Below, piece by piece: positions 22,675-54,854 of a stretch of DNA of 64,000 bases. The position numbers and the translations under genes were made by a program. The stretch spans positions 76,323,771-76,387,770 of the forward strand of contig NC_090392.1 of assembly GCF_036365525.1 (NCBI RefSeq), read 5' to 3'. Positions within the stretch are counted from its first letter, which is position 1. Each line of letters opens with the position of its first letter. A model generated the notes under the pieces. That model searched no databases. It saw only the letters and a program-made list of their open reading frames with translations, and was not told the DNA's origin. Source of the DNA: Heterodontus francisci (lineage: Eukaryota).

Positions 22675-22902
22675 AGAGACTTTGAACAAAGAACAACTGA
22701 AACTTTACCCTTCACTTCTATAATGCGGTTTCCTGGGCTCAAGAGCCAATCAGGGAACACCACAATGACGTGACTAGCTATCTTGCAGATGGCAAATGAA
22801 CACTCCAAGTGAAACAGAGCAGGCTGCTCTGTTCAGGAGGAATATCCAAAGCAGGCTGGACGGATGTGACTGAGTAGCTTCTGTGGAGTGAATGACCGGC
22901 TC
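22675..22902 (+). promoter_or_regulatory. Putative promoter and non-coding first exon of the JAML-like gene
   Basis: TCF/LEF CTTTGAA 22680, RUNX TGCGGT 22724 abutting ETS-like TTCCTG, CCAAT 22746, RUNX ACCACA 22759, CRE half-site TGACGT 22766; donor GTAAGT at 22903. Confidence 0.45.
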
Positions 22903-26058: not shown

Positions 26059-26110
26059 ATGAGCAGTGTGATGGGTCACCTCTTGGTCCTGTCGTCTCTC
26101 ATATTCTACA
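26059..26110 (+). CDS. JAML: JAML-like Ig V-set protein, signal peptide exon
   Basis: Acceptor ttcactccatag|26056; MSSVMGHLLVLSSLIFY hydrophobic leader; phase-1 donor GTAAGT fits the next exon. Confidence 0.75.
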
Positions 26111-26183
26111 GTAAGTGCTTCATTTATGGTGGAACAATGAACTATTATGTAGAAGGGTTTTGCATCTCAACTGTGATTGGGGG

Positions 26184-26708
26184 TAGGGTTGCCAAATCTG
26201 GTTGAACGTATTCCTGGAGATTTCATCACATGACCTGCCCACCTTCAATCACCCGACCCACACACTCACGCTATTGGTCCATTCCCAGTGCATCCCATTG
26301 CCCCAACCAATTGGAAAGCAAACAAACTCTTCAATATCCAATTGGATGATTCTTCACCATCCCGTCAAGCAGCGATTCTTTCCCCCACCATCTACAATAT
26401 TTTTATTATTCATAAGTGAAAGTGATAAAAGAAATTAAAAATAAATCCTTTAATGTCACCTATTTTTATCCTGGGTATTGCTCACAGCCAATGTTCCCTC
26501 TAAGTTCAACGGCCATGCAGCAACCCAAATATCCCTGTGCAGGACAGGCATACATCGGCACCTTTAAATTACTATGCATGCACAGCTGTGCAAAATAATT
26601 TAAAGGGGCCGCACACTTGAAAAAAAATTATAGGAACGTTGCTCACTGCAGTGTCCTGGAAATTAATCTTTAATTCCTGGGTACTCTCCAGGAAGATTGA
26701 CAACCCTA
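26184..26708. mobile_element. hAT-like MITE (TIR TAGGGTTGCCAA) containing a nested MITE 26489-26641
   Basis: Outer TIRs TAGGGTTGCCAA/TTGACAACCCTA; inner TIRs CAATGTTCC/GGAACGTTG with 8-bp TSD CTCACAGC/CTCACTGC. Confidence 0.7.
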
Positions 26709-26950
26709 CTCAGAGAGATAGTGAGAGAGAGAGCAAGCGCGTGCCGTAGGTTAGAACTGTTAACGAGAATCACTAACTTTTAAGTCACTTCCCTGTAAAC
26801 AGTTCAGTGAAAGTGTTAACTTCAAACCAACAGAGAAAAGTTTATTAAGAACATAAGGAACAGGAGTAGGAATAGACCACACAGCCCCTCGAGCCTGCTC
26901 TACTATTGAGTAAGATCCTGGCTGATCATCTGCCTCAACTCCACGTTCCC

Positions 26951-27799
26951 GCTGTTTGTGGGAGCTTGCTGTGTTTCCTACATTACAACAGTGACTACAC
27001 TTCCAAAGTATTTCATTGGTTGCAAAGCACTTTGGGATATCATGAAAGGTGCTATATAAATGCAAGTTCTTTCTTTTAGTTCTGCCTAGTCTGTGGTCAG
27101 CACTGAACCATATCCCCATATCCTTTGATTCCCTTAGTGCCTAAAAATACATCGGCAACAAAGGGGAGGCAGGCATGGTGGGGGAAGGGAGTAGGGGGCA
27201 AAAAGGAGAGGAGGGGGAGGGGATCGAGGAGGGGCATGATCAGAAGTTGGGGGAGGCAGTCAGGAGGGGGAGGGGATCGAGGTGAGGTGAGGTGAGGAGA
27301 GACCGAGATGGTTGGCAGAAGGGGAAGGGATCGGGAGTGGGGGAGGGAGTCGGGAGATGGCAGAGGTGGTAGGGAGAGGGAACCAGTTGGGGCAAGGTAA
27401 TCAGAGGAGGGGGCAATCGGGAGATGGAAAACAGGATCCTAATAAGTTGAGCACCGGAACCAACACGTGGGCAGATTGGGCTAAATTGGTGATGGGTTTT
27501 ATGTCTAGAAGCAGTGGGAGAAATGGGTTTCCTTGTGTGCTGTTAGACTTGGAAGAGAGAGAAGAATGAGAAGGATGGAAACACTCTGCCTGGTGTGACA
27601 TCGAGCCCCCAGACAAAGAAAAGTTCCAGTTTCTATTTATGGTTCAGTGCTGACCACAGACTAGGCAGAACTAAAAGAAAGAACTTGCATTTATATAGCA
27701 CCTTTCATGACATCCCAAAGTGCTTTGCAACCAATGAAATACTTTGGAAGTGTAGTCACTGTTGTAATGTAGGAAACACAGCAAGCTCCCACAAACAGC
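26951..27799. repeat. 162-bp inverted duplication (arms 26951-27112 and 27638-27799)
   Basis: Arms are reverse complements with one mismatch seen; the same peptide appears in opposite-strand ORFs. Confidence 0.92.
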
Positions 27800-28090
27800 A
27801 ATGTCATAATGGCCAAATAACCTGTTATTTAGTGATGTTGATGGAGGGATAAACATTGGCCAGGACACGAAGGAGACCTCCTCTCCTCTTCTTCACAATA
27901 GTGCCATGGGATCCTTTACTTCCACCCAAGAGGGCAGACGGGACCTCAGTTTAATGTCTCATCCGAAAGATGGCACGTCCAACAGTGCAGCACTCCCTCA
28001 GTATTGCACTGGCACGTCATCCTTGATTTTTGTGGTTAAGTCCAGGAGTGGGATTTGAACCCACAACCTTCTGACACCAAGGTGAGCACT
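27680..28090 (-). mobile_element. DeuSINE copy
   Basis: Deu core and tRNA-like head in reverse. Confidence 0.75.
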
Positions 28091-28544
28091 ACCCTGTTCC
28101 CATATTCCTTTAGCCCCCTATTCTGCAATCACCAATCTAACCAGTTTTAAATGTTGATACAAGTCTCTGCTTCAATCATTATTTCTGGTAGTGAATTCCA
28201 CAGCTTCACAACTCTTGTGAATAAAAAATGTTTCTCTTGCTCTCTCCTAAATCTCTTTCATTTAATCTCACATCTGTATCCTCTCATTCTAGATCCTTCA
28301 ACTACTGGAAACAGTCTGGCCACAATTATAACCCACCCGTCGTGAAGCTGATGGGATTGGGAGCAATTCTTGTTTTACACTCTGCCTGATTTTACTCTTC
28401 AACAGAGAGAAATTTTGTTTTTTCTACCCAACCCAGTGGGATTGGCACCTGGTGAATAAAGTTTAAAAAGCCCTCTTCAGTTTTTATCTACTCTATCCCT
28501 TCCATTCTTAACTTTAAACACCTCTAGCAAATCACCCTGTCCAC

Positions 28545-29000
28545 AAGAACATAAAAACATAAGAAATAGGAGCAGGAGAAGGCCATACAAGCCCTCAAGC
28601 CTGCTCTGCCAGTCAAAAAGATCAGGGCTGATCTTCTACCTCAGCTCCACTTTCCTGCCATATCACCTGATTCACTTACGAACCAGAAATCTATTGATCT
28701 CAGTCTTGAATATACTCAACGACTGAACATCCACAGCTCTCTGGGGTAGAGAATTCCAAAGATTCACAACCCTCTGAGTGAAGAACTTTCTTCTCATCTC
28801 AGTCCTGAATGGTTGACCCCTTGTCCTGCGGCTATGAACCTTAGTTCTGGACACTCCAACCGGGGTAACAGCCTCTCAGCGCCTACCCTATCAAACCCTC
28901 TAAGAATTTTATACATTTCAATGAGATCATCTCTCATTCTTCTAATCTCAGAGAATATAGGCCCTTTCTACTCAATCTCTCCTCATAGGACAGCTTTCTC
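28545..29000 (-). mobile_element. CR1 3' fragment
   Basis: Minus ORF TEMRRKFFTQRVVNLWNSLPQ. Confidence 0.8.
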
Positions 29001-30079
29001 ATCTAGGTTCTAATGAAGCAAATATACCATTGCTTGGATGGCAGCTGTTTAAGGCAACAATTGGGTTTCAGGATTCATATCCCTTGTACAAACAACCCAA
29101 GTTCCATTCAGGTGGTTGGTGATCCGACTCAAGCTGTCACTTTACTGAGACTTGCAGTGAAGGGGTGTCCTTTAGACCAGACACAATTCCATTGCTGCAC
29201 AGGTAAGCAGCAATTGTAATTTACTGTAAAAGGGAAGTCACATCATTACCACCAGCAACCCCACCACCTCCCCCTCCACTCCTCCAACCATACCATGAAC
29301 TACCCACAGTTTCCCTCTTTTCAGACACCTGACTTCTACATACAATTTTCGTGCTGCGGAGCAACTTAACCCTTAATAAGGCTCCATAATTCAGGCCTAT
29401 GCTCCGATGCATTACTGAGGGAGGGCTACCTGGACAGAGGTTCCATTTTCCACATGAGTTATTAAACCAAGAACCCCTGTGGCCTTGTGTAGTGTTTTCC
29501 AACTCGGATGCTTTGTAGGAGGCCTCGTTTGCAAACTGGTCTTAGTTTGTGCAGGAAGATCTGCAGAGATTTTCTTAATAATCTGGTTTCATTGTTCCAA
29601 TATTGGTGGCATGGACAACAGCAAGAGGCTTTCATTTAAGAAAAATAAAAATAAAAGCCAACACGATCTGTTAAAGGTGAATCGTGTTTGACGAACTTGA
29701 TTGAGGTCTTTGATGACGTAACCGAGAGGATTAATGAGGGGAGCGAGGTTGATGTGTTTATGGACAGAAAAAAGTTGTTTGATAAAGTGCCACATAATAG
29801 ACTTGTTAGAAAAATTAAAGGCCATGGGATTAAAGGGGCAGTAGCTGCGTGGATACATAATTGACTAAGGGACAGAAAGGAGAGAGTAGCAGTTAGCGGT
29901 TGTTTTCAGACTGAGCAGTGTGCAGTGGTGTTCCGCAGTGCTCTTTTTGATATATATCTGCATATGTGTGGTTATTGGGCCCAGCAGTGATTCTCTTATC
30001 ATTGCACAAAAGATTCTGGCCTGTAACTAATACTAACGAATATAGTGGCCAGTAATAGAGTTGGGTCTGTACTGCGAAA

Positions 30080-30360
30080 CAGTAAGCATCAGATACCTGA
30101 AATTGAATCGAGGGGTTTGTGTGGTTTATACATAAATAATAGATACCCAGGAACAAGTTACAGGCTGAAATTTAATGGGGGAGTTTGGGTGGTTTCTATA
30201 TAGAAATACAAATAGCCAAGAGTGAGTTACAGGCTGGAATCTAATCAAGGGGTTTGTGATGGGGGGTTATATATCGAATAACAGATACCTGGGAGAGAGT
30301 TACAGGCTGGAATCTAATCGAGGGGTTCAGGTGGTTTATATACCGACTGATGGATACCCA
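30080..30360. repeat. Degenerate ~65-70 bp tandem repeat, ~4 units
   Basis: Recurring CAGATACC..GAGTTACAGGCTGGAATCTAATCGAGGGGTT. Confidence 0.7.
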
Positions 30361-30460
30361 GTGTAACTTCAACAGCAGTGGCAATACACCCACTGCCTCC
30401 CAATACAAATACTGAGGCTTCTACCAATCTAGGTATTGGCTGTTTGTTCCTGCTCTACAG

Positions 30461-30630
30461 ATATCCTCTCAACCTTAGCTATTAGTATCTCTACCCCGGC
30501 ATACCTGGTTGTAGAAGAGGGAATGGAGCTACGACTGGACTGCAAGCTCAACTATCAAGCAGACACTCAAATACACAACATCAAGCTGGACTGGTACTAC
30601 ATGCCTTCCAGTGACACTAAAGAGGACTTG
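30461..30630 (+). CDS. JAML: JAML-like protein, IgV first-half exon
   Basis: ILSTLAISISTPAYLVVEEGMELRLDCKLNY...IKLDWYYMPSSDTKEDL: B-strand Cys, C-strand Trp; phase 1 to 0 split V domain typical of MPZ/JAML/SCNxB genes. Confidence 0.88.
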
Positions 30631-30937
30631 GTGAGTGATGTGTTCCAGTGCTCTGTGTCCATCCTCAGTGGCTGCACTCCACCATGAGCCTCTGGCGCTC
30701 TGTCTTTAACTCGAATGACCTTACAACATGTTGTCAATTTAGGGCAACTGGGATGTTTTGAACCAGAACTTTTGAGCCGTCCCTGGGAGCGTTTGTGCAA
30801 ATAACTGCAGAAATTGTGCACCAAAGCACCATCCAAATGATGAGAGCAGAAATCAGTGGGTGATCTGCTCTGGTTATGATATACATCAAAAAGCATCAAG
30901 AGTAATCTTAGGTTCACTGTCCAGCACATTGAATCAT

Positions 30938-31502
30938 TTACAACATAGAAGGAGGCCATTCAGCCCATCTAGTCCATGCCAGGTCTCAGCGGAGCTATCC
31001 AGTCAGTTCCACACCCCTGCTCGATCCCCATAGCCCTGTATGTTTATTTCCTTCAAGTGCCCATACAATTTCCATTAGAAGTCATTGATTGTCTCTGTTT
31101 CCACCACCCTTGTGGGCAGCGAGTTCCAGGTCATTACCACCCACTCTGTAAAAAAGTTCTTCCTCACATCCCCCCTGCATCTCTTTCCCAAAACCTTCAA
31201 TCTATGTTGCCTAGTCCTTGTACCATTAGTTAATGGGAACAATTTTTCTTTGTCTAACCTATCTAAGCTTGTCATAATCTTGTACAAATCTCCCCTCAAT
31301 CTCCTTTGCTTCAGGGAGAACAATCCCAGCTTCTCCAACCTAACCTTGTAACTAAAATCCCTCATCCCTGGAACCATTCTGGTAAATCTTCCCTGCACCC
31401 TCTCAAGGACCCTCACATCCTTCCTAAAGTGTGGTGACCAGAACTGGATGCAGTACTCTAATTGAGGCCTAACCAGAACTTTATAAAGGTTCAGCATAAC
31501 TT
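30938..31502 (-). mobile_element. CR1 3' fragment
   Basis: ORF LYKVLVRPQLEYCIQFWSPH...WNSLP. Confidence 0.88.
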
Positions 31503-32284
31503 CTACATAACAAAAGTTCTGAGATACATAACGCACAATGTGTTCCCCAAGTGTGCACCCACTTTTCCAGAATTATTTTGAACAGCAAAGGTAGGATTTG
31601 ATCTCATGCTCTTCTGGGTCATTAGTACAGGCCGCAGGACTACCAGAGAAGTTACAAAACCACAACACTATCATACCATTAAGCAGTCAGATCCATGCAG
31701 TGAGAACCAGCAATAGCAATCTCTCGCAGTTAATGTTACCTCAACCCACTATATGCCGTCGGCCTACTTTAGTTAGTGAACTTGCTTGTCCCTTTACCTT
31801 TGATCCTGTAGAATGAAGCAAGCTTGTGTAGATGAGGTGCCCTCCCTGCAGGCTTGAGGACGGTGTCCCTCCTCTGTGGAGGACCACCACTGGGAACCAA
31901 TTCACCCCCTGGAACTCCCCCTCCCCTCTGGACCACAAGACCATCCCCTGGCCTCCCTCCCCCCCAGACCTGCCGGTCTGGCCCTGGTGTCCCCACCTCA
32001 CCTACTTCTGTTCTGTGGTTCCAGTGCTGGGCCTGGGTCTGAGGCCTCTGCAATACCAGCAGTGGCCACCACTCCCGGCAGTGCTTCTGATACTGCTGGG
32101 CTGCTGGCCCTCTGATTGGCCAGCAGCTCATGGAGGCGGGATCCCCCATCCCTTTAAAGTTTTTAAAAGGATGGGGATCCCGCCACCTTAAAAGTTGACA
32201 CAAAAAGACTGGAGGATCGCTCCGGGGGCGGGGGGTGGCCAAGAAGGTGCAGAAGTGGGGATCCAGCACAAAATCCAGCCCATT

Positions 32285-32468
32285 ACCTGCCCTGGGAGTG
32301 TTTGATGGGGGACAGTGTAGAGGGATCTTTACTCTGTATCTAACCCCTGTGCTGTACCTGGCCTGGGTGTGTTTGATGGGACAGTGCAGAGGGAGCTTTA
32401 CTCTGTATCTAACCCCCGTGCTGTACCTGTCCTGGGAGTGTTTGATGGAACAGTTAGAGGGAGCTTTG
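32285..32468. repeat. ~63-bp dispersed minisatellite, ~3 units (also reversed at ~48995-49090 and 49735-49905)
   Basis: GGGAGTGTTTGATGGGACAGTGTAGAGGGAGCTTTACTCTGTATCTAACCCCGTGCTGTACCTG. Confidence 0.8.
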
Positions 32469-32519
32469 CTCCAACCCATGCTTTCTCTTCAGTTACTTTT
32501 TTTGTTTATTCCAACACAG

Positions 32520-32736
32520 ATTTTCTTTCACTACCAAAATATCAGTGTGGTAGTAGACAACGGCATCTTCTTTCCGAGACTTCAGTGGGTGGGTGACATT
32601 GGACAAAACAATGGTTCCATTCTCATAACTGAAGTGGAATGCAGTGACAAAGGCCGATTCACCTGTGATATGCGGATCCCAAGGTCTTCAAACGTGGTCT
32701 GTAGAAGCAGCATTGAACTAATGGTCCTCTGCAAAG
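32520..32736 (+). CDS. JAML: JAML-like protein, IgV second-half exon
   Basis: IFFHYQNISV...FFPRLQWVGDIGQNNGSILITEVECSDKGRFTCDMRIP: MPZ-family RxxWxGD...GSI...DxGxFxC signature; donor G|GTAATG. Confidence 0.9.
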
Positions 32737-32764
32737 GTAATGAACTAAGTTGCTGTAATTCTCT

Positions 32765-33010
32765 ACACTGGAGTTAATGGGAAGGGGTTTGATCCATTGG
32801 TATGTATATACTGGGAATGATGGGGAAGAAGTTGGTCCACTGGGATTTGTACACTGGAAATGAATGGAAAGAGGTTGGTCCATTGAGATTCGATACTACA
32901 GGAGTGAATGAGAAAGGGTTTGGTCCATTGGGATTGTATACACTGGGAGTGAGTGGAAAGGAGTTTGGTCCATTGGGATTAGATACTGCGGGAGTGAATG
33001 GAGGGGGTTT
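32765..33010. repeat. ~42-bp degenerate tandem repeat, ~5-6 units
   Basis: Recurring ACTGGGAGTGAATGG..GGTTTGGTCCATTGGGATT. Confidence 0.75.
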
Positions 33011-33264
33011 ATGTCATGTGTGCATTCTGTAGCGGTTAGATTGATGTAGTGAGTAAGCTAGGATTAAGTAGGTAATCATCTAAGACCATTCTACTGGCCT
33101 GATACTCACAATAACCCCATTAATTAAATTAATGGATGAAAACTTCTGGGCAGCATTCCCTGTGTTCTGATTCATGTGGGTGGGGCCTTCCATAAAGAGC
33201 GAGCAACCTCAAAATTTGTCTTTATATTAACGAGCATGCCGAGCATCCAAAAAATTAAATAAGA

Positions 33265-33625
33265 AAACTTGCATTTATATAACTCATTTGCATCTTTAAG
33301 ACATCCCAAGGTGCTTGTCAATCAGTGAATTCCTTTCAAATGCAGACACTGTTGTTATGGAGATAAACATGGCAGTCAACTTGCACAAAAAGTACCACAA
33401 CAGCAGTTAAATAAATGAGTCCAGTTGATCTGATTTGGTGGTGTTGGTTGAGGGATAAATCTTGACCAGGATACTTTGGTCCTCTTTGAATAATGTCATT
33501 GGTTCTTTTACATTCACCTGAACAGTTAGGCAGATCCTTGGTTTAGCATCTCATCCAAAAGTTGGCACCTCCGACAGTGCAGCACGCCTCCAGTATTGCA
33601 CTGAAGTGTCAGTCTAAATTCCGTG
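33265..33625 (-). mobile_element. DeuSINE copy (diverged)
   Basis: Same family as 27680-28090. Confidence 0.6.
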
Positions 33626-33803
33626 CTAGATCTGGGAGCAGGGCTTCAATCAATAGCCATTGGTGAGATTGTCACTGAGCCACGACTAACTTGTTCCTTT
33701 TATGAAACTGCTGCTTTTTGGGTGTGGGGGTTGATGGTGATGGGGGGTGGGTGAGGCAGAGATTTTCCACCTAAGTATTTCTGAGCATTTCTATTCCCTG
33801 CAG

Positions 33804-33972
33804 GTATCAAACACACAAGAGCTTTCAGGCCACCTGAGTCAGGGGAACTGATTCCAAAGAATATTATCATATATACAACAGTGGGGATCTTTACCTTCTT
33901 TGTTGCATTGTCTATTATCCTTGTAATCATATGGAAGAAACATTCAATGCACACAGCACCAAGGAGTCAAAG
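33804..33972 (+). CDS. JAML: JAML-like protein, stalk + transmembrane exon
   Basis: ttccctgcag acceptor; IIIYTTVGIFTFFVALSIILVIIW followed by KK stop-transfer; phase 1 to 2. Confidence 0.85.
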
Positions 33973-34081
33973 GTACACACATTGAGAAGAGAGAATTTAA
34001 AGGAGTTGTATTATCATCTTTCTTTTTACAAAATGAATAATTTTGAACTTTTCTCCCTCATTCTCTGTGGTCAATAAGCAG

Positions 34082-34115
34082 AAGGAACGATCCAGGCATT
34101 CTTGAAGACTCTGAG
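34082..34115 (+). CDS. JAML: JAML-like protein, small cytoplasmic exon
   Basis: Phase 2 to 0 exon bridging the TM and tyrosine-motif exons; RNDPGILEDSE; GAG|GTAATG donor; tandem AAG/CAG/AAG acceptors. Confidence 0.65.
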
Positions 34116-35039
34116 GTAATGGGTGTTTTAATATATAGTTTTTAGTCTTGATTTTTATAATCCAGAATATTAAATATTCAATCATTTTCTCAGTCACTAA
34201 AACTTTAAGACAAATTGTCAACTCCAGGTCAACAAGTGTTAAGTGTTCTTCCAGAGATTCTCCGTAGTTAGAGGGACATCCACTGAAGACGTACTTTCCC
34301 ATCATAGACAGGGGTGATTTGATTGAGGTTTATGGGATAATGAGAGGAATAAATTGTGTTCCAGTTGACAGTTGCTCCAATTAAACAGATTAGGGTGAAT
34401 CGGGAGGGGGTCACAATTTTTAGTTGTACGAAGCTAGACCGAGATTAGATGTGAGGAGAATAGTGGATCTCTGGTACAGGCTGTTGGCTCATCTGGTAGG
34501 TGCCAATTCACCGATTTCCTTCAAGTGAGAGCCAGACCTGTTCGTGGCTGGGGCAGACATCATCTCTTACAAAAAGTAGGTATTGCAGGAAATTCAGGAC
34601 CAAAGTGATCTTTTAGATCACCTAGATGGGTCGGAAAGGAATTTCCTAATTTGCCCCCCTCCCCCTCTTCCCCCCCACCCCCGCCAATTGGCTTGGGTTT
34701 TAATTTAGTTTCTCACTAGAGATCACATGGTTTTGGCTAGGGTGGAGAGTGCATATATTGTGATATGCAAGGTGTAGGACAGGTTGGATGGGCCAAGGGT
34801 CTTTACCTGCCCATCAGTATTTCTTTGTTTGTGAGATTTGTCCAACCTCTACCCCCATGGCTAACCCAGTGAATAAACAAAGTTTAAACTCCACAGGCTA
34901 GAAAGAAAGCTGGTTGGATTGGACTAAATGAGAGATATAAAATATTAAATGATATAGATAAGGTGAACCCAGAATATTACTTTGAGTAAAATCAGGCTTA
35001 GAAGGGCTAGACATTTTACAATTAGATTATGAATAAAGC

Positions 35040-35435
35040 TAGCATTTATGCAGAACGTTTCAGTACCATTGGCCATTTCAAAGCACTTTTGGAGTGTAGT
35101 CACTGTTGTAATGTAGGAAGCATGGCAGCCAATTTACACACAGCAAGCTCCCACACATAGCAATGTGATAAAGACCAGCTAATTTGTTTTAGTGATGTTG
35201 GTTGAGGGATAGATAACTTCCCTGGTTTTCTTCCCAATAGTGCCAGAGAATCTTTATTTACATCTGAGAGGGCAGACAGGATCTTGGTTTAGTGTCACAC
35301 CTGCAAGACAGCTCCTTCAACAGTGCAGCACCCCCTCAGTGTCAGCCTTGTTTTTGTGCTCAAGTCCTGGGGTGGGACTTGAACCCAGAACGTAGTGAGA
35401 AATAAGAGTGCTACCAACTGAGCCACAGCTGACAT
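35040..35435 (-). mobile_element. DeuSINE copy
   Basis: Same family. Confidence 0.7.
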
Positions 35436-36286
35436 CGCTACTAAATATGCAATATAAAACTGGAGTTATTTAAAGTATGTTTAAATGTTTGGTTTGATCT
35501 GCCAAGCAGGGCTGTAGAGATTCTGGTACTGCAGAATGGGCATCAATGGGATACTAGAGGGTCAAGTTTCCAAGGGAATGTCGGGGTACTGGAGCAATGG
35601 GCTTAGAGAGGAGATTTAGGCAACTGGAGAGATGGGTTTTAGTAGCTCAATGGCATTTTCTTGTCTTGCCTGCTTTAGATGTGATCTGGTGGTGTGGATT
35701 ATTCACTGCATAAGATCATTAAATTTGCTCCCCACTTCTATTCCAGAAACTGTTGAGAATTATCTGTTAATCATATTTTGTTTGCCTTCCTCAACTGTTG
35801 GGTGGCATTGGAGACAATTGTTATTCAGAGATATTTGTTTTACTGCTTCAGTTTCCTCCTTTCCTCTCCTGAAGGTCCTGATCCACAGGTGCCATCAGGC
35901 TTTGGTATCACACTGAAGCAATCATTCTTTATGTATAAGTCTAAACAGTGAATGTTGGCAAGTTATTCAGCCATGGAATAACTGCTGAGCCTGATCCTGC
36001 CTTTACCTAGCAGGTATTCTCCAGAAGGAGTCACTAGATCAGGAGCAGGAACCCCCGTTGATGTTCCTCTGACAGTAGCTTAGAAGTCAAATGTGTGGCC
36101 CTAATTCTGCTGCAGCTGAAATCCATAGATCAATGATAGGACCTGGGACCATCCCGGTCCAGACTGTTGCGTTCCATACTAGATTGACCCAATGAGACAT
36201 TGGAGAAAAACAAGCGGGGATTGGGAGAACTTATATTAGAAATGCCTGTTACAGCTGATTAAACAAATATGTTCACCAACAATCAG

Positions 36287-36412
36287 GACACAAACCGTTA
36301 CGTCACTGTGAGCAGGAGACAACCACATCTGATAGACATAGAAAATAAAGAAATGGAGGGGAAGAAAAATAAGGAATCAAAGACTGGTGAAGAAGAAATT
36401 TATGTAACAATG
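36287..36412 (+). CDS. JAML: JAML-like protein, cytoplasmic exon with YVTV and YVTM (YxxM)
   Basis: DTNRYVTVSRR...GEEEIYVTM|GTAAGA; mirrors the human JAML segment with YSPI...YMTM; acceptor is weak. Confidence 0.72.
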
Positions 36413-36689
36413 GTAAGATTGTTGGGGAATAATTGCTTTTGAATGATGTAAGTACAAGATATTACACAGCGTCTATATGACTTCCAGGTATTCACAGTTA
36501 GTAATGAATCCATGAATACTAGCCATCCATTGGATGCATAAATTGTGTAAAGACATTTTAGCGACAGAAACTGGGCAACAAGCCTGTTGCTCTTTGAGTA
36601 ATCTCAATCCTACCTACTCACCTTCCTACCATATCCCTCAATCCCATTTTCTCACGATAATCCTTCAGTCTATATATAAATTCTATAAT

Positions 36690-38102
36690 CCTGTTCAAGA
36701 AGGGAGGGAGACAAAAAGGAGGAAACTATAGGCCAGTCAGCCTAACATTGGTCGTTGGGAAAATGCTGGAGTCCATTATTGAGGAAGTAATAGCAGGACA
36801 TTTAGAAAAGCTTAACGCAATCAAACAGAGTCAACATGGTTTTGTGAAAGGGAAATCATGTTTGACAAATTTGCTAGAGTTCTTTGAGGATATAACAAGC
36901 AGAGTTGATAAAGGAGAACCGGTAGATGTAGTGTATTTGGATTTCCAGAAGGCATTCGATTAGGTGCCACATAAAAGATAGGAGCTCACGGTATTGGGGG
37001 TAATGTATTAGCATGGATTGAGGATTGGTTAACTCACAGAAAACAGAGAGTCGGGATTAATGGGTCTTTTTCAGGTTGGAAAGACGTAACTAGTGGAGTG
37101 CCACAAGGATCAGTCCTAGGGCCTCAATTATTTACAATCAATATTAATGACATGGAGGAGGAGACAGAGTGTAATATATCCAAAAATAGTTGGGAGGGCA
37201 TGTTGTGATGAGGACATAAGGAATCTGCAAGGGGATATAGATAGGTTGAGTGAGTGGGCAAAAACTTGGAAGATGGAGTTTAATGTGGGAAAGTATGAGG
37301 TCATGCACTTTGGTAGGAAGAATCAAAAGGCAGACTGTTATTTAAATGGAGAGAGACTCCAAAAAAGTGCAGCACAAAGGGATCTGGGAGTTCTTGTTCA
37401 TGAAACAGATAAAGTTAGCATGCAGGTGCAGCAAGTAATTAAGAAGGCAAATGGAATTTTGGCCTTTATTGCTAGGGGGTTGGAGTTTAAAAATAGGGAA
37501 GTTTTGTTACAACTGTACAGGGTGTTGGTGAGGCAGCACCTGAAGTACTGCGTACAGTTTTGGTCCCCGTATTTAAGAAAGGATATACTGGCATTGGAGA
37601 CAGTTCAAAAGAGATTCACTAGGCTGATTCCTGGGATGAAGGGTTTGACTTATCAAGAATGGCTAAACAGGTTAGGCCTTTATTCATTAGAGTTTAGAAG
37701 AATGAGAGGTGATCTTCTTGAAATGTGCAAGATTCTGAGGGGGCTTGACAGGGTAGATGTTGAAAAGATGCCCTCACTAGTAGGGGAATCTTGAACTAGG
37801 AGACATAGTTACAGAATAAGGGGACACTCATTTAAAACCGTGTTGCGAAGGAATTTCTTCTCTCAGAGGGTAGTGAATGTCTGGAATTCTCTACCCCAGA
37901 GAATTGTGGAGGCTAGATCACTGGAAGTATTTAAAGAGGAGGTAGATAGATTTTTGAAATATTGGGGAGTTGAGGGCTAGGAGGAGCTGGCATGAAAGAG
38001 GAGTTAAGGTTTGGGGCAGATTAACCATGATCTTATTGAATGGTGGGGCAGGCTTGAGGGGCCGAATGGCCTACTCCTGCTCCTATTTTTTATGTTCTTA
38101 TG
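36690..38102 (+). mobile_element. 5'-truncated CR1 LINE (RT to 3' UTR), frameshifted
   Basis: QHGFVKGKSCLTNLLEFFE, VYLDFQKAFD, GVPQGSVLGP, YCVQFWSP. Confidence 0.92.
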
Positions 38103-38549
38103 TTTAATCCCACCTATTCATCTTTCCACCATCCCTCTCAATCGATTTCTCCCCAAATTGCTTAGTCCCATGTACCACCTCCTCACCAAATCCCTCAGCC
38201 CTTTTTCCAAAAGTACAACCAAAGTTGAATGGATGTTCACTCTCAGATTCAATGGGCTAGATTGGCAAATTATCCGACAACTCAATTACCCTTTGAGCGA
38301 AAAAGTTCCCTATTCTTTCTCTTCTTTTTCTTCATTTCCTCATTTTAACTCTATCCACTGGGATTTGAGTTATTCACCATAGTGAACAATTTGTCCAGTT
38401 CAGTTTTGTTGGTCCCACTGTCAAACATTTCACATTAAAGACTTTCACTTTCCAATGGAAACAAACTCACCTCCATTAGTAAAACCTAGATTCACAATAC
38501 TAGGAATTTTCACTGATTCTCAAGGGGCAATACTATACCTCCTCAGACT

Positions 38550-38918
38550 TGGGGTTGCTAAAACTACAGGGTTAGACTCTCCAGCAATTAAAGATTGATC
38601 TCCTTGGCACTGCTTCAAGTAACCATGGGGGGAAATTATCCAGTGATTTAAAAAAAAAAAATTTTCATGTTCTTTTAGTAACTTTGTTTCATAGTTATAA
38701 AAATATCACAGATGGGGAATAAAAGGCTGTTTGATTGACAGCCAAGATTCATCCAATCAGCTAATGGAGAGTCTTTTCACTTTCCAATTGGCTGTGGAAA
38801 GGCAATGTGTTGTGAGGATACTCTTGGTCAACCAATGGCAGGAGCATGTGGGTTGGAGGCGGGTGGGTCATTTGATGATACCTCCAGGAATAGGTCCAGC
38901 CAGAGTTGGCAACCCCTT
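38550..38918. mobile_element. hAT-like MITE, same family as 26184-26708, inverted
   Basis: GGGGTTGCTAA / TTGGCAACCCC ends and shared internal motifs. Confidence 0.6.
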
Positions 38919-39665
38919 GTTGTAGCCCCAATCAACCTTGATGGATATCTACAGGAGTGGACCATAATGGAAAGAGGGTTTTGCATTTTTATAGCGCTTT
39001 GCTTGAACGCAAGATGTCCCAAAGTGCTTTTCAGCAAATCAAGTACTTTTTGAAGTATAGTCACTGTTGTACTGTAGGGAAACATGGCAGCCAATTTGTG
39101 CACAGCAAGATCCCACCAAATCAATGAGGTAAATCGTCAATTGAACTGTTTTGTTGGTGTTGTTTGGGTGCAGATCAAGGATTAAACCTCTGACCTTACC
39201 AGTCTGCATGGGATGGCTACTCATCAGCCTTTTCAGGAGTAGTTTTTAATTGTTAAAAATTCCACCTCTTGAATCAGTAAAGTGGGACTCTGAGGGGAGT
39301 CAGGACAAAAGCGACTTTGGCGCTGGGGGAGGAAATATATTTATTTTAAGAGACTTCAGTCCTTCCCTGCTACATTCAAGTTTAAGGGCAATGATTGTGC
39401 GTTACACCCTATGTATTGCAAACTAGTTTGCAAACCGTTCCTGACAAGCCATGGTTGGTGCATATTGTGGGGCATTTTAAAGGATTGTACTCCAGGGAGT
39501 CTCACCCATCTGTCTCCATTTTAGGAAGTCCTGCGGGAAGTGCAATGATTTTCCCAGGTGAGCTATTCTGACCATTAGGGAAAACTCAGAAAATTAGCCT
39601 GGTATGCTTAAAGAATTCCTGTGTGTTTTGTACCTAATATTTTCCTGTTTCTCTTTTATCTCCAG

Positions 39666-39749
39666 CGCTCATTCTTGGGAACTGGGAAATCAGATGATCT
39701 TCCTAAACCTATCGTACTCAGTTCTGGAGAACGTTCCCACCAGGTTTAA
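39666..39749 (+). CDS. JAML: JAML-like protein, terminal coding exon
   Basis: Strong acceptor tttctcttttatctccag; phase 0; RSFLGTGKSDDLPKPIVLSSGERSHQV*; AATAAA at 40016. Confidence 0.6.
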   Translation, partial: RSFLGTGKSDDLPKPIVLSSGERSHQV

Positions 39750-43197: not shown

Positions 43198-43276
43198 ATG
43201 AAACTTCATGTCAGACCAGGTCTGCCTCGGCTGCATTCCGCCTTGCTCGGGTTGATGCTGTTCTTCAGTGGCTCGG
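43198..43276 (+). CDS. SCN2B: Sodium channel beta-2 subunit, signal peptide exon
   Basis: MKLHVRPGLPRLHSALLGLMLFFSGS resembles human MHRDAWLPRPAFSLTGLSLFFSL; phase-1 donor GTAAGT. Confidence 0.85.
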
Positions 43277-45597
43277 GTAAGTTGCATTTTTTAAAAACAG
43301 ATTTTTCTGGTTAGAAAAGCAAAGTTGAGAGAGAGAGAGAGAATCGAGACTGAATCAGCAGCCAAAACGCAGAGATTGACACATCTCCCTTCATTTTACA
43401 GAGAAAAATAAAATAAAGGGATGTCTAATGTTGGATTACCTGTCATCGAATATGTGAAGGTCCTTGCCCTATACAGATTGGAATTTCCCTAACCAGCTTC
43501 ATATTGTCTGGTTTCCACAGTATTTATATTTTTATTCTTTTCACACAGACTATTATTTATTGCATATGTCAACGCAGATTTTGTGGACTCTGTGTTCTCT
43601 TACTGAGATTGTGGATGTGAACTGACACACTCAGATAATTTTATTTTTTTTTAATACACACACCATCTTACAGGGTGAAATAGAGTTCTTGCTGTCTCCC
43701 AGGCTGGCTATTGGGTGTGTCAAAATGTCCTCTTCATCAGATGTGTTTTATCCTTGTCACAAATCTCCCCACGTCTTCCTCAAGGAGGCTGTCCTACGGG
43801 CAGTTGGTATTCAAAGGAATCTCCCAGTTATCACCAATTGTTTTGCTTCAATTAAGTGACCTCTCAGAAGTGGGGGAGAAGGATTTGTGCAAAAAAGATG
43901 GGAATGATGTCTCAATGGGGGTATTTTAAAAAATGAATTCATGTCAAGGAACCTGAAATTAAAACATGAAAATGTTGGAAACACACATCAGATCTGGTCA
44001 ACATCTGCATAGAGAGAGAGAGAGATAAAAGACAGGTTAATACACTGGGTGGAAGTCCTTCCTCAGAAATGGTTCAGAGAAGGAAAGGGAAAGGCCATGT
44101 TATAAAGCTGGTTACAATAAATGAGGCTTGACAATCTGTAGCATTCTCCAGTATTTTGAAAGGTGGCTATTCCACCATGGCGAGGTCACAGCTGATCCTG
44201 CCCAGCGACTGGAAGCTGTAGAGTTCCGTGGAGAATTCTGAGAGCACCGAGGAGTCGAAACTACCCAGTATTCGGGCCAAAAGGAAAATATATGAATACG
44301 TTGGGCCTTGTTACAGTGAGTTAGTGAGGGAGCAGCAACATTGTAAATCCCACAGCAAGTTGGAATGTGATCATAGAATGAGAAATGTAGGAGAAGGGAG
44401 ACCAGAATCACAAATCCTATAGTTGTATCCTACTGAAGGATACAGTGGAATTGGACAGCACAAAAGACCATTCAGCCCATCATCCCTGTGCTGGCTCATT
44501 GAAAGAGATACCCAGTTGGATCCACTCCACTGCTCTTTCCCCATAGCCTTGCAAATTTCTCCTTTTCAAGTATAAATCTAATTCCCATTTGAAAGTTACT
44601 ATTAAAACTGCTCCACCACATTTCCAGGTAGTTCATTCCAGATTATAACAACTTCCTGTGTAAAATATTTATTGCCATCTCTGCTCTGGTTCTTTTGCCA
44701 ATTATATTAAATCTGTATCTTTTGGTTACTGACCCTCCTGCTAGTGGAAGCAGGTGTCTCCCTATTTACTGTATCAAAACACCGCTTCACCTTGAACAAT
44801 TAAATCTTCCCTTAACCTGCTCTATTCTAAGGAGAGCAATCCCAGCTTCTCCAATCTCTGCACATGGCTGAAGTCAGCTCCAGCCATGCCTCAGTTATAA
44901 ATTCTCATCCTTGTTTTCAAATCCTTCCCTATCTCTGTAACCTCCTCCAGCCCCACAACCCTCCGAGATCTCTGCGCTCCTCCAATTCTGGCCTCTTGCG
45001 CACCCCAATGTTCATCCTTCTACTATTGTCAGCCGTGCCTTCTGCTGCCTGGCCTCTAAGCTCTGGATTTTACTCTCTAAATCTCTCCATCCCTTTACCT
45101 CTCTCTCCTCCTTTAAGACACTCCTTAAAACCTTCTGCTTTGACTCTAGTTTTGGTTGCCTGTCCAAGTATCTCTTTATGTGGCTCAGTATCGAATGTTG
45201 TTTGATAATACTCCTGTGAAACACCTTGGGATGTTTTACTACATTAAAGGTGTTATGTAAGTGTGAGTTGTTGACGTCCATTATCTCTAGTACCAAGTAG
45301 TCAGCTAGTGACTGAAAATCTCACCCCTTGGGTTTGTCTGATGTCATTAGTTCTGCCTAAGTGATCAGTTAATCTACAAAATTATCCACTGCAGCCCCAA
45401 CAAATGTCACCCAGTGACAACTGGACAAATGTAAACTGTCTACGTGGTTTTACAAGTCTGTTAAATCTTAATGTCTAAATTCTGGAGCAATATGAAAGTA
45501 TATATCTAAATATATTTTAAAAATTCCAGGTGAAAAGTCTGGATCCATAAGAACACGGACACCCAGTTACACTGAGCATTATCCATTCTCATGTGTC

Positions 45598-46030
45598 ATC
45601 TGTGGCTCAGTGGGTAGCACTCTCACCTCTAAACTTGAAGATTGTGTGTTCACGTTCCACTCCAGGGACTTGGCCATATCATCCAGGCTGATGCTCCAGT
45701 GTAGTACTGAGGGAGTGCTGCTCTGTTGGAGGTGTTGTCTTTCGGATGAGGCATTAAACCAAGACCCTGTCTGCCCTTCAGGTGAACATAAAAGATCCTT
45801 GGCACTATTCTGAAGAGCAGGAGAATTCTTCCAGTTATCCTGGCCAAATATTTAACTTTCCACCCGCATTATTAAAACAAATTATCTGACCATTAGCTCA
45901 CTGGTGTTTGTGAGAATTTGCTGTGTGCAAATGGGTTGCCACGTTTCCTTACATTACAGTAGTAACTGCACTTCAAATGTACTTTATTGACTGTAAAGCA
46001 CTTTGAGTGTGAAAGATGTTATATAAATGT
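45598..46030 (+). mobile_element. DeuSINE copy
   Basis: GTGGCTCAGTGGGTAGCAC head, Deu core. Confidence 0.75.
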
Positions 46031-47547
46031 AGATGTCTCCCAGAAGTTAATACTGACTCCATCTGGTGAACGGGATGAGTAGTTGCAACTTTGAACTACG
46101 TTGCAATTCCTGATACACTGTAAGTTTGAAATGAATATGAATTGCGTTTAGGGTTGAATAATCTAACATCATCGTGGAAAAATCATCTTCACAAGGAGCT
46201 TCAGCAGTTCAAGAAGGCCGGCCCACCACAACCTTCTTAGGGCAACTATAGACGGGCAATAAATGCTGATCAAGTTTATTTTTTGAAAAAGTGCTTAAAT
46301 AAAAAGTTAAAACAAAACCCTTCATTGACTACAATCCATGTTGCAATTTTTAGAAATTCAATAATCAGATGAGAAAATGAATCCAAATTGCGAAATTATT
46401 TTCGTTAGAGCACGTTACTTTTTGTATTATGGGAGTAGAATCTTTTCTCGATTGCAGCTCTGATAGGTAAATCTTCAAAGAATGCAAGAGAGCTTGGAAT
46501 GAGAATTAGACATTTAGCCTTCAATGACAACTCTTTCTACAGTCCATACAGGTCAACATCAGCCCTTCCTGGAGCTAATCTGTCCTATCGCTATCTGACA
46601 ATCAATAACACCCTCCCTGGAAATTATCTGATCTATCTATATCTCTCTCACCCTCAATCAATGATGATCCAATTCCTTTCCAAAGATATCCCTGACCCTG
46701 AATTTCTCTGCCAGTTTGTTCCACGCATTCACTATCCCATGAGGGAAATGAACCTGCTCTAATCTTGTTCAATGTCATCATACTGTCTGGGTCATTTTCA
46801 GCACAGGTTGGAAACTCTGGCGTTCCTAAATTCTACACCCGGCATCCTTGCTGATTGAACTACTGGTTGACAATAAATTTTGGAGAAAACATGCAGCACA
46901 TTTTCTTGCATTTAGAAACAACTTGCATTTCTATAACCCCTTTAAGGTAGTAGGGCATCCCAAGTTGCTTCACAGGAGCATAATTGGTCAAAAGCATTGG
47001 CACCAAGAAGATGGAAATTTTAGGACAAGTGACCAAAAGCTTGGTCAAGGCAGTAGATTTTAAGAAACTTCTTCAAGGAGGAAAGAGAGGTAGAGAGGTT
47101 TAGGGAGGGAAATCCAGAGCTTTTGGCCCAGGCAGCTGAAGGCACGGCCACCAATAGTGGAAAGTCGGTAATGCACAAGAGGCCAGAGTGGTTGGGCTGG
47201 AGGAGGTCACAGAGATAGGGAGGCCATGGAGGGATTTCAACACAAGGATGAGAAGTTTAAATTTGAGGTGATTTTTTTGGGGGGGCCAATGTAGGTCAGC
47301 ATTTTGCCCTGTATCCAACCCTTCTGTAGCTGCCCTAGGAATTGTTTGATGGGCTCGTGTAGCACAGTTGGGGCAGCAACAGTTGGCCAAAGCACCTCTA
47401 TGTTAATGAAGGTAAAAATCAGCCATGGATCCTGCTACCCATTGTTATCCACCAAGCTCTCTCCTACTGGATGTGTGAATGGTTTTCCTTCAAGACAGGA
47501 TCTGGCTCGACGATGCCCCCATGGTGGAATTTCCTGTTGCTACTCAT

Positions 47548-48360
47548 TGGGCTGTATTTTAAGAGCCCGCCGTCACTCCCTGCGGCGAGCCCAGAAAATG
47601 GCATCATTGAGCACGCTCAAGACAGAAATCAATAGATTTCTGAAAACTAAGAACATCAAGGAATATGCGGATCATGGGGAATAATGGTACAGAGGTAGAT
47701 GATCAGCCATGATCTGTTTGAGTGGCGGAGCAGGCTCAACAGGCCGAATGGCCTACTCCTGCTCCTATTTCCTATGATTCTTATGAACCCCCCCGAAAAT
47801 TTACAAAATAAAATTGGAACGCCCTTTTACGATCACCCAATAAAAATCACAGTATTTGCCCTTCCCCCTCCCCCACCAAAAAACTTACATTTGAATTCTG
47901 ACCTTCCCCTCCCACAAGACAGCACAAAGTTGAAAGTTCACCCCTTCTCAACATCCCCTACACAGATGATGCTTATTTGACCCCATCACCCCACCCCTCC
48001 CGTGCTGAAAATCTTAACTCCTCCCCCCTCCCCACCAATGTAATGTGTGCTTTCCCCAAACGGGGAATTGAAGGCACGGGAGTGCCAGCCGCTGCACTGA
48101 AGATCGCGGCAGTTAAGTTTTAATTGGTCTTAATGATTTAAATATGGAAATTGAGGTCCTGTCGCCCAGCGGCGAACAGGGGTGGGGGAGAGGGGTGGTG
48201 GCGGTGGGGGCCACCATGGAGCCTTGCCGCCACTGGGAGGATCAGGCCGGGGCCTCCCAGGGTCGGACTCTGAGGCGGGCCTCTGCCAGAACAATCTTTC
48301 GGCTTCCCCACCCACCACCGCCATGGAGCGCGACATCATGGACTTGGTAAAATCCAGCCA
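47548..48360. mobile_element. Putative non-autonomous TIR element with nested CR1 tail (47600-47785)
   Basis: GGGCTGTATTTT / AAAATCCAGCC ends; a similar end occurs at 32270-32281. Confidence 0.4.
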
Positions 48361-48584
48361 ATTATCTATTCTCCCACATGAAGTCTGGTTATTTGGGTGA
48401 GGTAAGGTGGATCGTTCCTGTGGAATGTTGCCCCAGGAAGAGCTGGACTTGTGAGGAGGAGGATGGGAGAAATTTCTAGGTGTAAGATGTTTTAAGACAA
48501 GGTGCTCATCCTCATTTCATCAATCGCAAAAACATCGAGGAGTTAATAAAAGCGATTAATAAAGAGGTTGAGTGATTGTTTATC

Positions 48585-48718
48585 CAGTTACAGACTGGCA
48601 GGGGACTCCAGTTGCAGACACACAGGGGACTCCAGTTGCAGACACACAGGGGATTCCAGTTACAGACACACAGGGGACCCGGTTACTGACGCACAGGGGA
48701 ATGCAGTTACAGACACAC
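48585..48718. repeat. 24-bp tandem repeat, ~5 units
   Basis: CAGGGGACTCCAGTTGCAGACACA. Confidence 0.85.
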
Positions 48719-51700
48719 CATTTGGGAACGGGGGGCAAAATTTTAAAAATAGATTTTCATTCACTAACAACAGTTTTAAAAGGGTTGCAGACAGACGGGG
48801 GGCCCCAGTTACAGAGGTAACTTCCCCCACTCTCATTCTCTCCATTCCATCCCCACTCTCAAAACCTCCCTCACTCCCTCACCCAAGCTCACTCCCTCCC
48901 TTCCCTTCAGGCTTACTCTCTCCCTCAGTCTCACACACTCTACCCCTCCAATCCATTCACAGTCCCTCACTCCCTCTTTCCCCCAAGCATGGATTCGATA
49001 GAGTAAAGCTCCCGCTACACTGCCACATGGAACACTTCTAGAGAAGATACAGCACAGGTTAGATACAAAGAAAAGCACCCACTGTACCATCCCATAGAAA
49101 TAGTACAGTACAGATGAAGGCCATTCAACCCATTGAGTATGTGCCAACTCTTCCAAAGAGAAACCCAATTAGTCCCATTCCACTTTCTTTCCCTATACCT
49201 CTGCAAATATTTTTCTCCTTCAAGAATTTATTCAATTTCCTTTTGAAGGCTACTATTGAATCTGCTTCCACCATCCTATTGGGCAGTGCATTTTTGGGAA
49301 TTGGGAGCAAAATTTTAAAAATAGATTTTCATTGGCTAAGAATAGTATTAGACACTCAAACACTCCCAGTGAAGACTGAGGGGTACCGTCTTTAAAATTA
49401 TGAAAGGGTTTGATGGGGTAGACACAGAGAAGTTGTTTCCACTTGTGGGTGAGACCAAAACAAGCGGCCATAAATATAAGATAGTCAGGAAGAAACATCT
49501 TCACCCTGAGAGTAATGAGAATGTGGGACTCACTACCACAGTGAGTAGTTGAGACAAATAGAATAGATACATTTAAGGGAAAGCTCAATATATAGCTGAG
49601 GGAGAAAGGAAGAGAAGGATATGCTGATGGGATTCGATTAAATAGGGAGGGAAGAGGGTTGTGCGGAGCATAAACTGTCATGAGCCTGTTGGGCTGAATG
49701 GCCTGTTTCTGTGCTGTGAACATTTTGTAATAGTATGTTAGATACAGAGTAAAGCTCCCACTAGACTGTCTGATCAAACACACCCAGGATAGGTACAGCA
49801 CAGGGTTAGATACAGAGTAAAATTCCCGCTACACTTTCCCCATCAAACATTCCCAGGACAGGTACAGCATGGGTTAGATACAGAGTAAAGCTCCCTCTAC
49901 ACTATCAGCCTAGAGTTTGTGCAGAAGTCTCTGGAGTAGTCTCTGTCAGGATATTCTGTGAAACAAATAAATGAACAAATGCCAGTGTGAGACCTTGCAT
50001 GCTGATTGTCGATCAATAGATTATTGCAACAAGACTAAACGACTCCTTTAACCCTTTCATCGATACCCCTCTACTTACCTTGGCCAAGTTATTTCTCTGT
50101 CACTTTGTTTAACCAGACAGGTAAGTGAGCAATAGATTCTTTCAACTTGCTATAGTTTGTCACAGTTGGCAGAGGCTGAAGTGGATTAGGCAGAGGAGGA
50201 AGGAAAGAGAAAACTGAAGTAGCTTGCGTTGGCTTTCAGTATAGACACTATTCTCCTGCGAGGAAGGATTTCAGGTTCGCTGTCAGTTAACTCATTCATT
50301 CTTGGTCGAATCATTACAGATGAGGATAGCGATGTTATTTTATACTTAGGGATTTATCATTCTGTCATTTTCCAGTGGTTTCCTTCTTGTCCATTGACTC
50401 TCAGGATCTGAGATGGTAAGAGTGTACCTCTGTACTTTCATGGAAAAAAAATCCAACTGGTCTTAACCCTGGGCTATCTCCATACTTCTAGATATGGTTA
50501 GTTCATTATCTGAGATCCTTTATTCTGCCTTCTGGGGAACCACGTTTCCTCCTTGGGCTAGCCAAAAGATTTTTGTGTCAGGGCCGAGTGAAAAGCATCC
50601 ACAGTCCCCGAATGCTCTGTGTAGACTGGCCTCTGACACCCAACTGATTAAAGACGTCCTTACTTCTCAACAGGAACCTTCACAGATGACGTGAGTCCAG
50701 TTCATCCAAAGTCCTGTAATCTTGTACAATCTTCGCCTCGCAGGGTAACTGAGTATCGAGCATTGCGGGAACCTCTTCCTAACATCTTCAGGGGAAAAAA
50801 ATCCTTTCTGAAGCTTTGTTTATTGGAGTGTTGCAAATTAAACAGTACAAGCTGACAGACAGGATACGATTCCTTTTCATGTTCTGTTGGAATGGAATCT
50901 TGTTCCATTGCAGCATCCCCTGGGATAGGCCCAACTTAGTATTATTCAATAAGAGACTTGCAGAGTCAGCACTCGAGCCCAGCTGCATCGCCCTCTGATT
51001 GATGCAGCATTTGGAGATATAGATTTTTTTTACAGAGACTTAAAGCACAGCAATATGCAAATATTGCTGCAAAGGGTAAAGGCACAACTGCATGATGACA
51101 GCAGCACTGAAGCTGGTGCAGTTTGGGCAATTGAAGAGAAGGTTAAATGGAGAGTTCTGTTATCAGGACCCTTCTTAAGGTGGGTGGTCTTACTGAGAGG
51201 ACCCACTTGAACAAGGTGACCTCGTTAAAACGCTCCTCTTCATCCAAGCTTTTGGTTACCTGCCCCAATAATCTCCTTATGTAGCTCGGTGTCAAATTTT
51301 ATTTGATAACGCTCCTGTGATGTGCCTTGAGACATTTTACTACGTAAAGGTGATGTATGAACACAAGTTGTTGTTCTCTTGCCATGGGGATACTTTTGAA
51401 CCAGGAGTGTCAGCTTTGTGACTTTTTGAACAGAGGAGGAGGTTCACCATCGGACTCACACCTGTAAAGGGCAGCTGTCATCACAGACAGTGTTGTTTGG
51501 GGCACATTATGAGATGGTGAGGCATGTCTTTATTACTCTCTGTTCTCCTTAATGGTTCAATCCTGAAAGATGTGCAACTTGGTGGCATGGGATTTAGGGT
51601 CAGATTTTGAGACGTGGCTTAATTGAGATACTTAATTTTTTGCACCTCCAAAAGGCACCAAATTCAAAAGGACATCCAAACTTCATCATTACCTAGCTTG

Positions 51701-51811
51701 GGCCTTAAATCCCTTTCTCAGGGCTGAGAAAACTATCCCTTTATTTTACAGCTGTGGAACAGGTAATCAGACATTTTCAATGACAGTCTGTTTCCTTCCC
51801 ATTCCCTTTAG

Positions 51812-51978
51812 TCCACATTGGCTCTAGTATGGAAGTCATGGTTTCACCCTATGTCATCAAACTAAATGGTACATCAGCCAAACTGACCTGCACCTTCAAC
51901 TCATGCTATGATGTCAACGAAAAGCGTTTCTCCTTAAATTGGACCTATTTTGAATGTGAAAACTGCACACAAGATGTG
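51812..51978 (+). CDS. SCN2B: SCN2B exon 2
   Basis: SMEVMVSPYVIKLNGTSAKLTCTFNSCYDVNEKRFSLNWTYFECENC; retains the CTFNSCY cysteine that links beta-2 to alpha subunits. Confidence 0.96.
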
Positions 51979-52059
51979 GTAAGTGTTTTGCTTTATTTTT
52001 TGTTTCATGATATAATTGGTAGGTAATAGATGTTCTTTGGAAGAATGTTTCCTTGCAAA

Positions 52060-54680: not shown

Positions 54681-54854
54681 GACTGGGAGCAATGTAACAG
54701 CACGTTGAATGCAGGCTGGTTAAGCTATAGAGAATGGGGTGGCCCAGTACAGAGGGCCTGATGCAGTTAGACAAATGAAGGGGTGCTATGGTCTTCTTAG
54801 TAGATAGCTATAGAGTGTCATTGGCAGATCATAACTTCTTTCTCAGTGACATCA

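Follow-up and report, generated by a model that had tools for sequence, protein, structure and literature searches.

A Very Probable JAML Orthologue with One V Domain in the Horn Shark and the Likely Ancestral State of the Family

In mammals, JAML (AMICA1) lies downstream of MPZL3 and is followed by SCN2B and SCN4B, with JAML and these two genes on one strand. The protein is described as having two domains (PMC12237671) and has been placed in the beta/MPZ subfamily (PMC10506104). Clustering by CAR brings p85 to the YMxMxPxxP motif of the mammalian tail and leads to AKT activation (PMC7982423, PMC8404475, PMC4241470, PMC5900413), the motif resembles that of CD28 (PMC8404475, PMC4241470), and JAML is a target in cancer immunotherapy (PMC8404475). 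Here we describe a JAML-like gene on the forward strand of a window of 64,000 nucleotides from the horn shark Heterodontus francisci (contig NC_090392.1, 76,323,771 to 76,387,770; all positions below count from the first letter of this window). The gene is very probably the shark orthologue of JAML and encodes a single immunoglobulin V (IgV) domain, which is likely the ancestral state of JAML, the two-domain mammalian form being late.

The horn-shark gene shares with placental JAML (mouse ectodomain, PDB 3mj6; CAR complex, 3mj7) its position upstream of SCN2B, a K-x-D-W motif, an N-x-S sequon, a C-E/D-x-R motif, and a tail with a proximal tyrosine and a distal Y-x-T-M. It differs in having a single V domain where placental JAML has two, an additional cysteine pair (C115 and C145), a spacing of 34 rather than ~22 between the tyrosines, no PxxP after the motif, and no adjacent MPZL3. 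The one-domain JAMLs of chicken (XP_040546240), platypus (XP_007655660), turtle, crocodile, lungfish, and coelacanth have the same arrangement of leader, one V domain, transmembrane segment, and two-tyrosine tail as the shark protein, although the coelacanth model is without transmembrane segment and tail. These proteins are ~20-25% identical to the shark protein overall; sauropsid JAML has a third tyrosine after the motif, and the distal P-x-E-W of bony vertebrates is absent in sharks. MPZ, MPZL1-3, and SCN2B/4B have the same fold, one V domain likewise encoded by two half-exons, and a place in the same gene cluster, but lack the motifs of the domain face and the tail YxxM that are counted below. 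CD28 and ICOS, which also combine a lone V domain with a PI3K site of the YxxM type, probably work in a similar way; no membership is claimed. CD28 and ICOS belong to a different family and have different ligands.

JAML has been listed in lamprey without domain analysis (PMC7916592), and domain number is not addressed in the available text of PMC7916592, PMC4536121, or PMC9866089. We found no literature on one-domain or shark JAML in a search that had subscription journals and supplements, such as those of shark genome papers, outside its reach. Databases already contain one-domain JAML for chicken and platypus.

Orthology and Domain Number

The gene is assigned to JAML because its position, the domain tree, and its motifs agree. 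SCN2B and an SCN4B-like gene follow it directly on the same strand; the place held by MPZL3 in mammals is taken by an SC5D-like gene. In a tree of 56 domains (20 of 76 rows were dropped, 5 as distant or long and 15 as redundant), all nine shark and ray rows grouped with the named JAMLs behind a 100/99 branch. Approximately unbiased (AU) tests, which covered MPZL3, MPZ, and MPZL2, rejected a grouping of the shark and ray domains with MPZL3 (p-AU 0.004), with MPZ (p-AU 0.010), and with MPZL2 (p-AU 0.039). Membership in MPZ is also contradicted by the tail, where Myelin-PO_C was not found, Pfam giving V-set only. Profiles built without shark sequences, which differ in depth, placed 8/10 shark and ray domains best on JAML, and 10/10 once ray-finned members were added.

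The diagnostic motifs, which were chosen after the alignments had been viewed, follow the same division. The C-strand K-x-[DE]-W is present in 10/10 shark and ray domains, 7/9 one-domain JAMLs of lobe-finned fish and tetrapods, 6/6 placental first domains (D1), and 0/35 paralogue domains. For the F-strand C-[DE]-x-[RH], the corresponding counts are 10/10, 8/9, 5/6, and 0/35, with 0/6 for the placental second domain (D2). A tail Y-x-x-M occurs in all full-length JAML-group proteins listed, the exceptions being one short model and two isoforms that skip the exon. It occurs in 0/25 scorable paralogue tails (38 are listed, the rest being too short). The shark gene dates JAML and its PI3K motif to the ancestor shared by all jawed vertebrates.

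We searched all 2133 six-frame open reading frames of the window with a hidden Markov model (HMM) of the JAML domain built from 22 JAML-group proteins. Four significant half-domains were recovered, two from the JAML-like gene and two from SCN2B, while the next-best match had an E-value of 1.3. Because the window holds only these two pairs, the gene has no second domain; neither the HMM nor tblastn revealed a second Ig domain, a further V-domain exon, or remnant V exons across the 64 kb.

The same state is found in all 29 shark and ray proteins (P0001-P0029), in the RefSeq-named JAMLs of chicken, turtle, crocodile, lungfish, coelacanth, platypus, and echidna, and in unnamed JAML relatives of bowfin, gar, paddlefish, and char. 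Within the JAML group, in a sampling that left out marsupials and amphibians, two domains are confined to placental mammals and to unnamed proteins grouping with them. The possession of two extracellular Ig domains, which neither the shark protein nor chicken or platypus JAML shows, therefore defines the placental form only. The shark gene is an ordinary member of the JAML family with a modest evolutionary message. Among vertebrates, a single domain is the norm for JAML. The bowfin, paddlefish, char, and gar proteins (P0079, P0112, P0123, and P0132), annotated as 'uncharacterized', resemble unrecognized one-domain JAMLs with C-Y-V-T-L and Y-x-T-M tails.

A preliminary description of the window had pointed to the place of mammalian JAML immediately upstream of SCN2B, had seen no second pair of Ig half-exons by eye between 26.1 and 33.8 kb, and had offered two readings, a pre-duplication one-domain JAML or a lineage-specific MPZL paralogue. 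The shark gene too has SCN2B downstream on its strand, and the HMM and tblastn searches agree on the absence of a second pair. Tree, position, and motifs support the pre-duplication reading; the paralogue reading fails, with MPZL2 and MPZL3 found elsewhere on the contig and the MPZL3, MPZ, and MPZL2 groupings rejected as above, including the clustering with MPZL2 or MPZL3 that the description had named as evidence against JAML. The surprise it had implied in a single domain has gone, as every non-placental JAML sampled is in this state, with the chicken and platypus proteins already annotated as JAML.

The Tail, the Ligand, and Proposed Signaling

The two-tyrosine tail is conserved from sharks to mammals, and Y219, Y253, T255, and M256 are nearly invariant columns in an alignment of 21 sequences. 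The EEEIYVTM motif terminates exactly at the exon-6 donor. We predict with good confidence, from the sequence of the tail, that PI3K docks at YVTM. The proximal YVTV was considered as an inhibitory or switch motif (immunoreceptor tyrosine-based inhibitory or switch motif, ITIM or ITSM) and rejected, since the residue two before the tyrosine is hydrophobic in whale shark only; no inhibitory role is claimed. As seen in gene models, RefSeq isoforms X4 of whale shark and X3 of basking shark lack the exon carrying both tyrosines, and sevengill (X2) and smooth-hound have two copies of it. In lungfish, Y-I-T-M units recur along the tail. In the horn-shark window this exon is single.

The gene is, in our assessment, very probably a one-IgV JAML orthologue, in what is likely the ancestral form, whose product likely serves as a leukocyte adhesion and costimulatory receptor recruiting PI3K. 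The shark protein would be located on leukocytes, where the exposed face of its single domain, with D1-type K-x-D/E and C-D/E-x-R, would bind CAR, or another member of its family, on epithelial or endothelial cells. Clustering would then lead to phosphorylation of YVTM, and docking of the p85 SH2 domains would start PI3K-AKT signaling. We consider CAR moderately likely as the ligand. The crystal structure 3mj7 reportedly has CAR contacted through D1. In human D1, K54 is required for the dimer and for CAR adhesion (PMC2600739), and the equivalent lysine, placed by motif, is conserved in shark (K59).

Three observations weigh against carrying the mammalian mechanism over to the shark. The PxxP that follows the mammalian YMxM is missing in sharks, where the shark and ray YVTM is followed by RSF or HAF. 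Both face motifs occur in 0/5 ray-finned members, so the ligand may vary. Finally, CAR binding has been assigned to D2 by Zen 2005 (cited in PMC2600739), and D2 is the domain least like that of the shark. The last two points also favor an alternative in which the protein descends from JAML and uses PI3K for signaling, but has another ligand or adheres to itself, in the manner of MPZ, with CAR binding arising later in tetrapods or mammals. Identity of only ~35% to placental D1 and closest structures that are MPZ-family folds agree with this alternative as well. However, the charged C- and F-strand residues shared with D1 are kept in 10/10 shark and ray domains, and the K54-equivalent lysine, needed for CAR adhesion (PMC2600739), is conserved, and we consider this alternative unlikely.

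A broader version of the CAR-binding reading is tentative and, on balance, doubtful. Here, JAML would be a founding PI3K costimulator of the jawed vertebrates, similar to CD28, and would have acted as a one-domain CAR receptor ever since gamma-delta T cells arose. Its signal strength would be tuned through the exon with both tyrosines, by skipping, giving a signal-dead isoform, or by independent tandem duplication in sevengill, smooth-hound, and lungfish. If this were true, the natural one-domain JAMLs would settle whether D1 or D2 serves CAR and what the second mammalian domain does. One-domain orthologues of chicken, platypus, or shark could show directly which of the two domains contacts CAR, and whether the second serves just as a spacer.

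Paralogy and the Origin of the Second Domain

The gene could instead be a cartilaginous-fish-specific MPZ or MPZL paralogue that sits where JAML would be expected and acquired its tyrosine motifs on its own. Several results are unfavorable to JAML here. When five distant V domains are included, the unconstrained tree lacks a JAML clade, though such a clade is not rejected (p-AU 0.264). Single-domain scores are nearly tied between JAML and MPZ (37.6 versus 40.3 bits; 63.1 versus 61.6), and with a JAML profile lacking ray-finned rows, 2/10 shark and ray domains score higher on MPZL1. A fold search puts MPZ, SCN2B, and MPZL1 above JAML; the structure model behind it, with domain pLDDT (predicted local distance difference test) mostly >85 and an input alignment in which 51/85 rows are MPZ-family, cannot separate paralogues. 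The upstream neighbor is a gene other than MPZL3, and most shark RefSeq models are named 'myelin protein P0-like' or 'MPZL2/3-like'. The mixed names are themselves explained by the near-tied JAML D1 and MPZ scores, and the assignment to JAML corrects what is a widespread misannotation.

Set against these results, the AU tests reject the MPZL3, MPZ, and MPZL2 groupings, the motifs and the two-tyrosine tail fit JAML and no paralogue, and the nearest Atlas cluster is JAML (0.98, with 0.97 for both MPZL2 and P0). In addition, the MPZL2-like and MPZL3-like genes are both found ~6.3 Mb farther on the same contig (C22:82685283-82781617), and the 200 kb of sequence retrieved there lack any JAML-like domain. 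In gar, one gene model (P0204) fuses MPZL2, MPZL3, and a JAML-group domain, so that the three are adjacent in a bony fish; since MPZL2 and MPZL3 lie ~6.3 Mb from JAML in the shark, the shark cluster is split between MPZL3 and JAML. Independent origin as a paralogue is thus very improbable.

Under JAML orthology, the simplest reading of the domain sequences is that two-domain JAML arose by tandem duplication of both V exons after the monotreme split, which would make the textbook two-domain JAML a likely late mammalian exon duplication. Placental D1 shares 50-65% identity with D2, and together they make up one clade (100/96) that is sister to the monotremes (95/85). Placental mammals would have duplicated the two V-domain exons, with D1 retaining the ancestral face and D2 diverging. 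Two points allow for an older event: the AU test does not reject a duplication that came before monotremes branched off (p-AU 0.080), and conversion between D1 and D2 could lead to too recent a date. A two-domain ancestor that lost one domain separately in sharks and other lineages is already largely refuted and highly improbable, for although the grouping of D1 with monotremes survives that same test, separate losses would be needed in sharks, ray-finned fish, lungfish, coelacanth, sauropsids, and monotremes, D1 and D2 remain close and in one clade, and remnant V exons are absent from the window. Two unnamed MPZL1-like proteins (P0032 and P0035) have two near-identical V domains, either a parallel paralogue duplication or an assembly artefact.

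Gene Model, Transcripts, and Neighborhood

Seven spliced exons (Table 1) give an open frame of 283 amino acids, with GT..AG introns in phases 1, 0, 1, 2, 0, and 0. The encoded protein consists of a leader, a V-set domain with one half in exon 2 and the other in exon 3 (C45, W62, and C123), a transmembrane segment near residues 167-190, YVTV, and EEEIYVTM. Residues 1-282 are identical to RefSeq XP_067910451 ('myelin protein P0-like X2', Heterodontus francisci), and scored on this RefSeq form, the Pfam V-set domain spans 29-143 (E 3e-12), with no other Pfam domain found. The spliced, conserved gene of the preliminary description is confirmed, as are its seven phase-compatible exons and its order of leader, split-exon IgV, transmembrane segment, and tail motifs. 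Its proposed check of the junctions by RNA is answered in part: one contig of run X1 (samples are coded, and X1 is RNA by guess) links exons 3-4-5 at GT..AG with zero mismatches, while joints 1-2, 2-3, 5-6, and 6-7 are absent among the contig rows listed. In the contig comparison that joined exons 3-4-5, exon 6 is uncovered, which says nothing on its use.

Table 1. Coordinates of the JAML-like gene and other features, in window positions
Feature	Position	Strand	Remarks
Exon 1, coding part	26059..26110	+	Signal peptide, phase-1 donor; start shared with RefSeq model
Exon 2	30461..30630	+	IgV first half: B-strand C45; C-strand K59-L-D61-W62
Exon 3	32520..32736	+	IgV second half: N81 sequon, C115, C123-D-M-R, C145; contig joins exon 4
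Exon 4	33804..33972	+	Stalk and transmembrane helix; contig-joined; model helix 165-195
Exon 5	34082..34115	+	Short tail exon; contig supports acceptor 34082
Exon 6	36287..36412	+	126 nt, phase 0-0; YVTV (Y219) and YVTM (Y253, predicted PI3K p85 site)
Exon 7	39666..39749	+	Tail end and stop codon; stop spanned unspliced by contigs; sevengill X4 ends alike
Candidate promoter and untranslated first exon	22720..22901	+	RUNX-, ETS-, CCAAT-, and CRE-like sites, then GTAAGT donor
SCN2B, downstream neighbor	43198..57581	+	Synteny marker; exon 2 at 51812
SC5D-like sterol-desaturase, upstream neighbor	10202..13562	+	Pfam FA_hydroxylase E 8e-18 on last exon; other exons by eye

The RefSeq form has 299 amino acids, the final 17 of which are read from SCN2B exon 2 in a different frame, as XP_067910450/1 splice from inside exon 7 (39743) to 51812. 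The 283-residue form is the better model because this RefSeq tail is SCN2B exon 2 out of frame, contigs of runs X1 and X2 span 39665-39853 over the stop with no joint, and the sevengill X4 isoform ends alike. The join to SCN2B may be an annotation chimera or a read-through transcript.

Among 12 AG sites 5′ of the exon-6 donor, 36287 alone combines phase 0 with a frame free of stops; it has a weak pyrimidine tract, yet is used by the RefSeq model. An alternative acceptor at 36255 was rejected, having stops in all three frames. At exon 5, a NAGNAG tandem acceptor (34079/34082) adds or omits one serine, and many sharks have pairs of isoforms that differ by a single residue. The extra cysteines C115 and C145 of exon 3 are kept in 10/10 shark and ray domains and might form a second disulfide, and the Heterodontus francisci domain has an additional cysteine at 135. 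A genome search lent no support to a close second copy of the gene, as exon 3 gave one match at E 0.001 (the count is at least one).

An acceptor directly 5′ of the exon 1 start implies an untranslated 5′ exon. The candidate region for it is the sole 70-bp window in the 64 kb with two RUNX, an ETS, and a CRE (cAMP response element) site, a criterion picked after viewing. Its RUNX-, ETS-, CCAAT-, and CRE-like sites resemble the consensus sequences, and the region is an unproven candidate for a leukocyte-type promoter. A tandem array of ~45-bp units lies at 24670-25330, 5′ of the gene.

The order on contig C22 is SC5D-like, JAML-like, SCN2B, and SCN4B-like, with the last gene 35-45 kb past the end of the window. 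The name SC5D-like is presumptive, and the SCN4B-like gene is presumed to be so from its position. A satellite of >20 kb is located within the SCN4B-like gene. On contig C10 (80722196-80722414), an MPZ-family V-domain match has two in-frame TAA stops and is perhaps a pseudogene. Decayed LINE-like (long interspersed nuclear element) retroelement stretches were seen by eye at 36690-38100 and 18940-22430, with high repeat read depth over the former.

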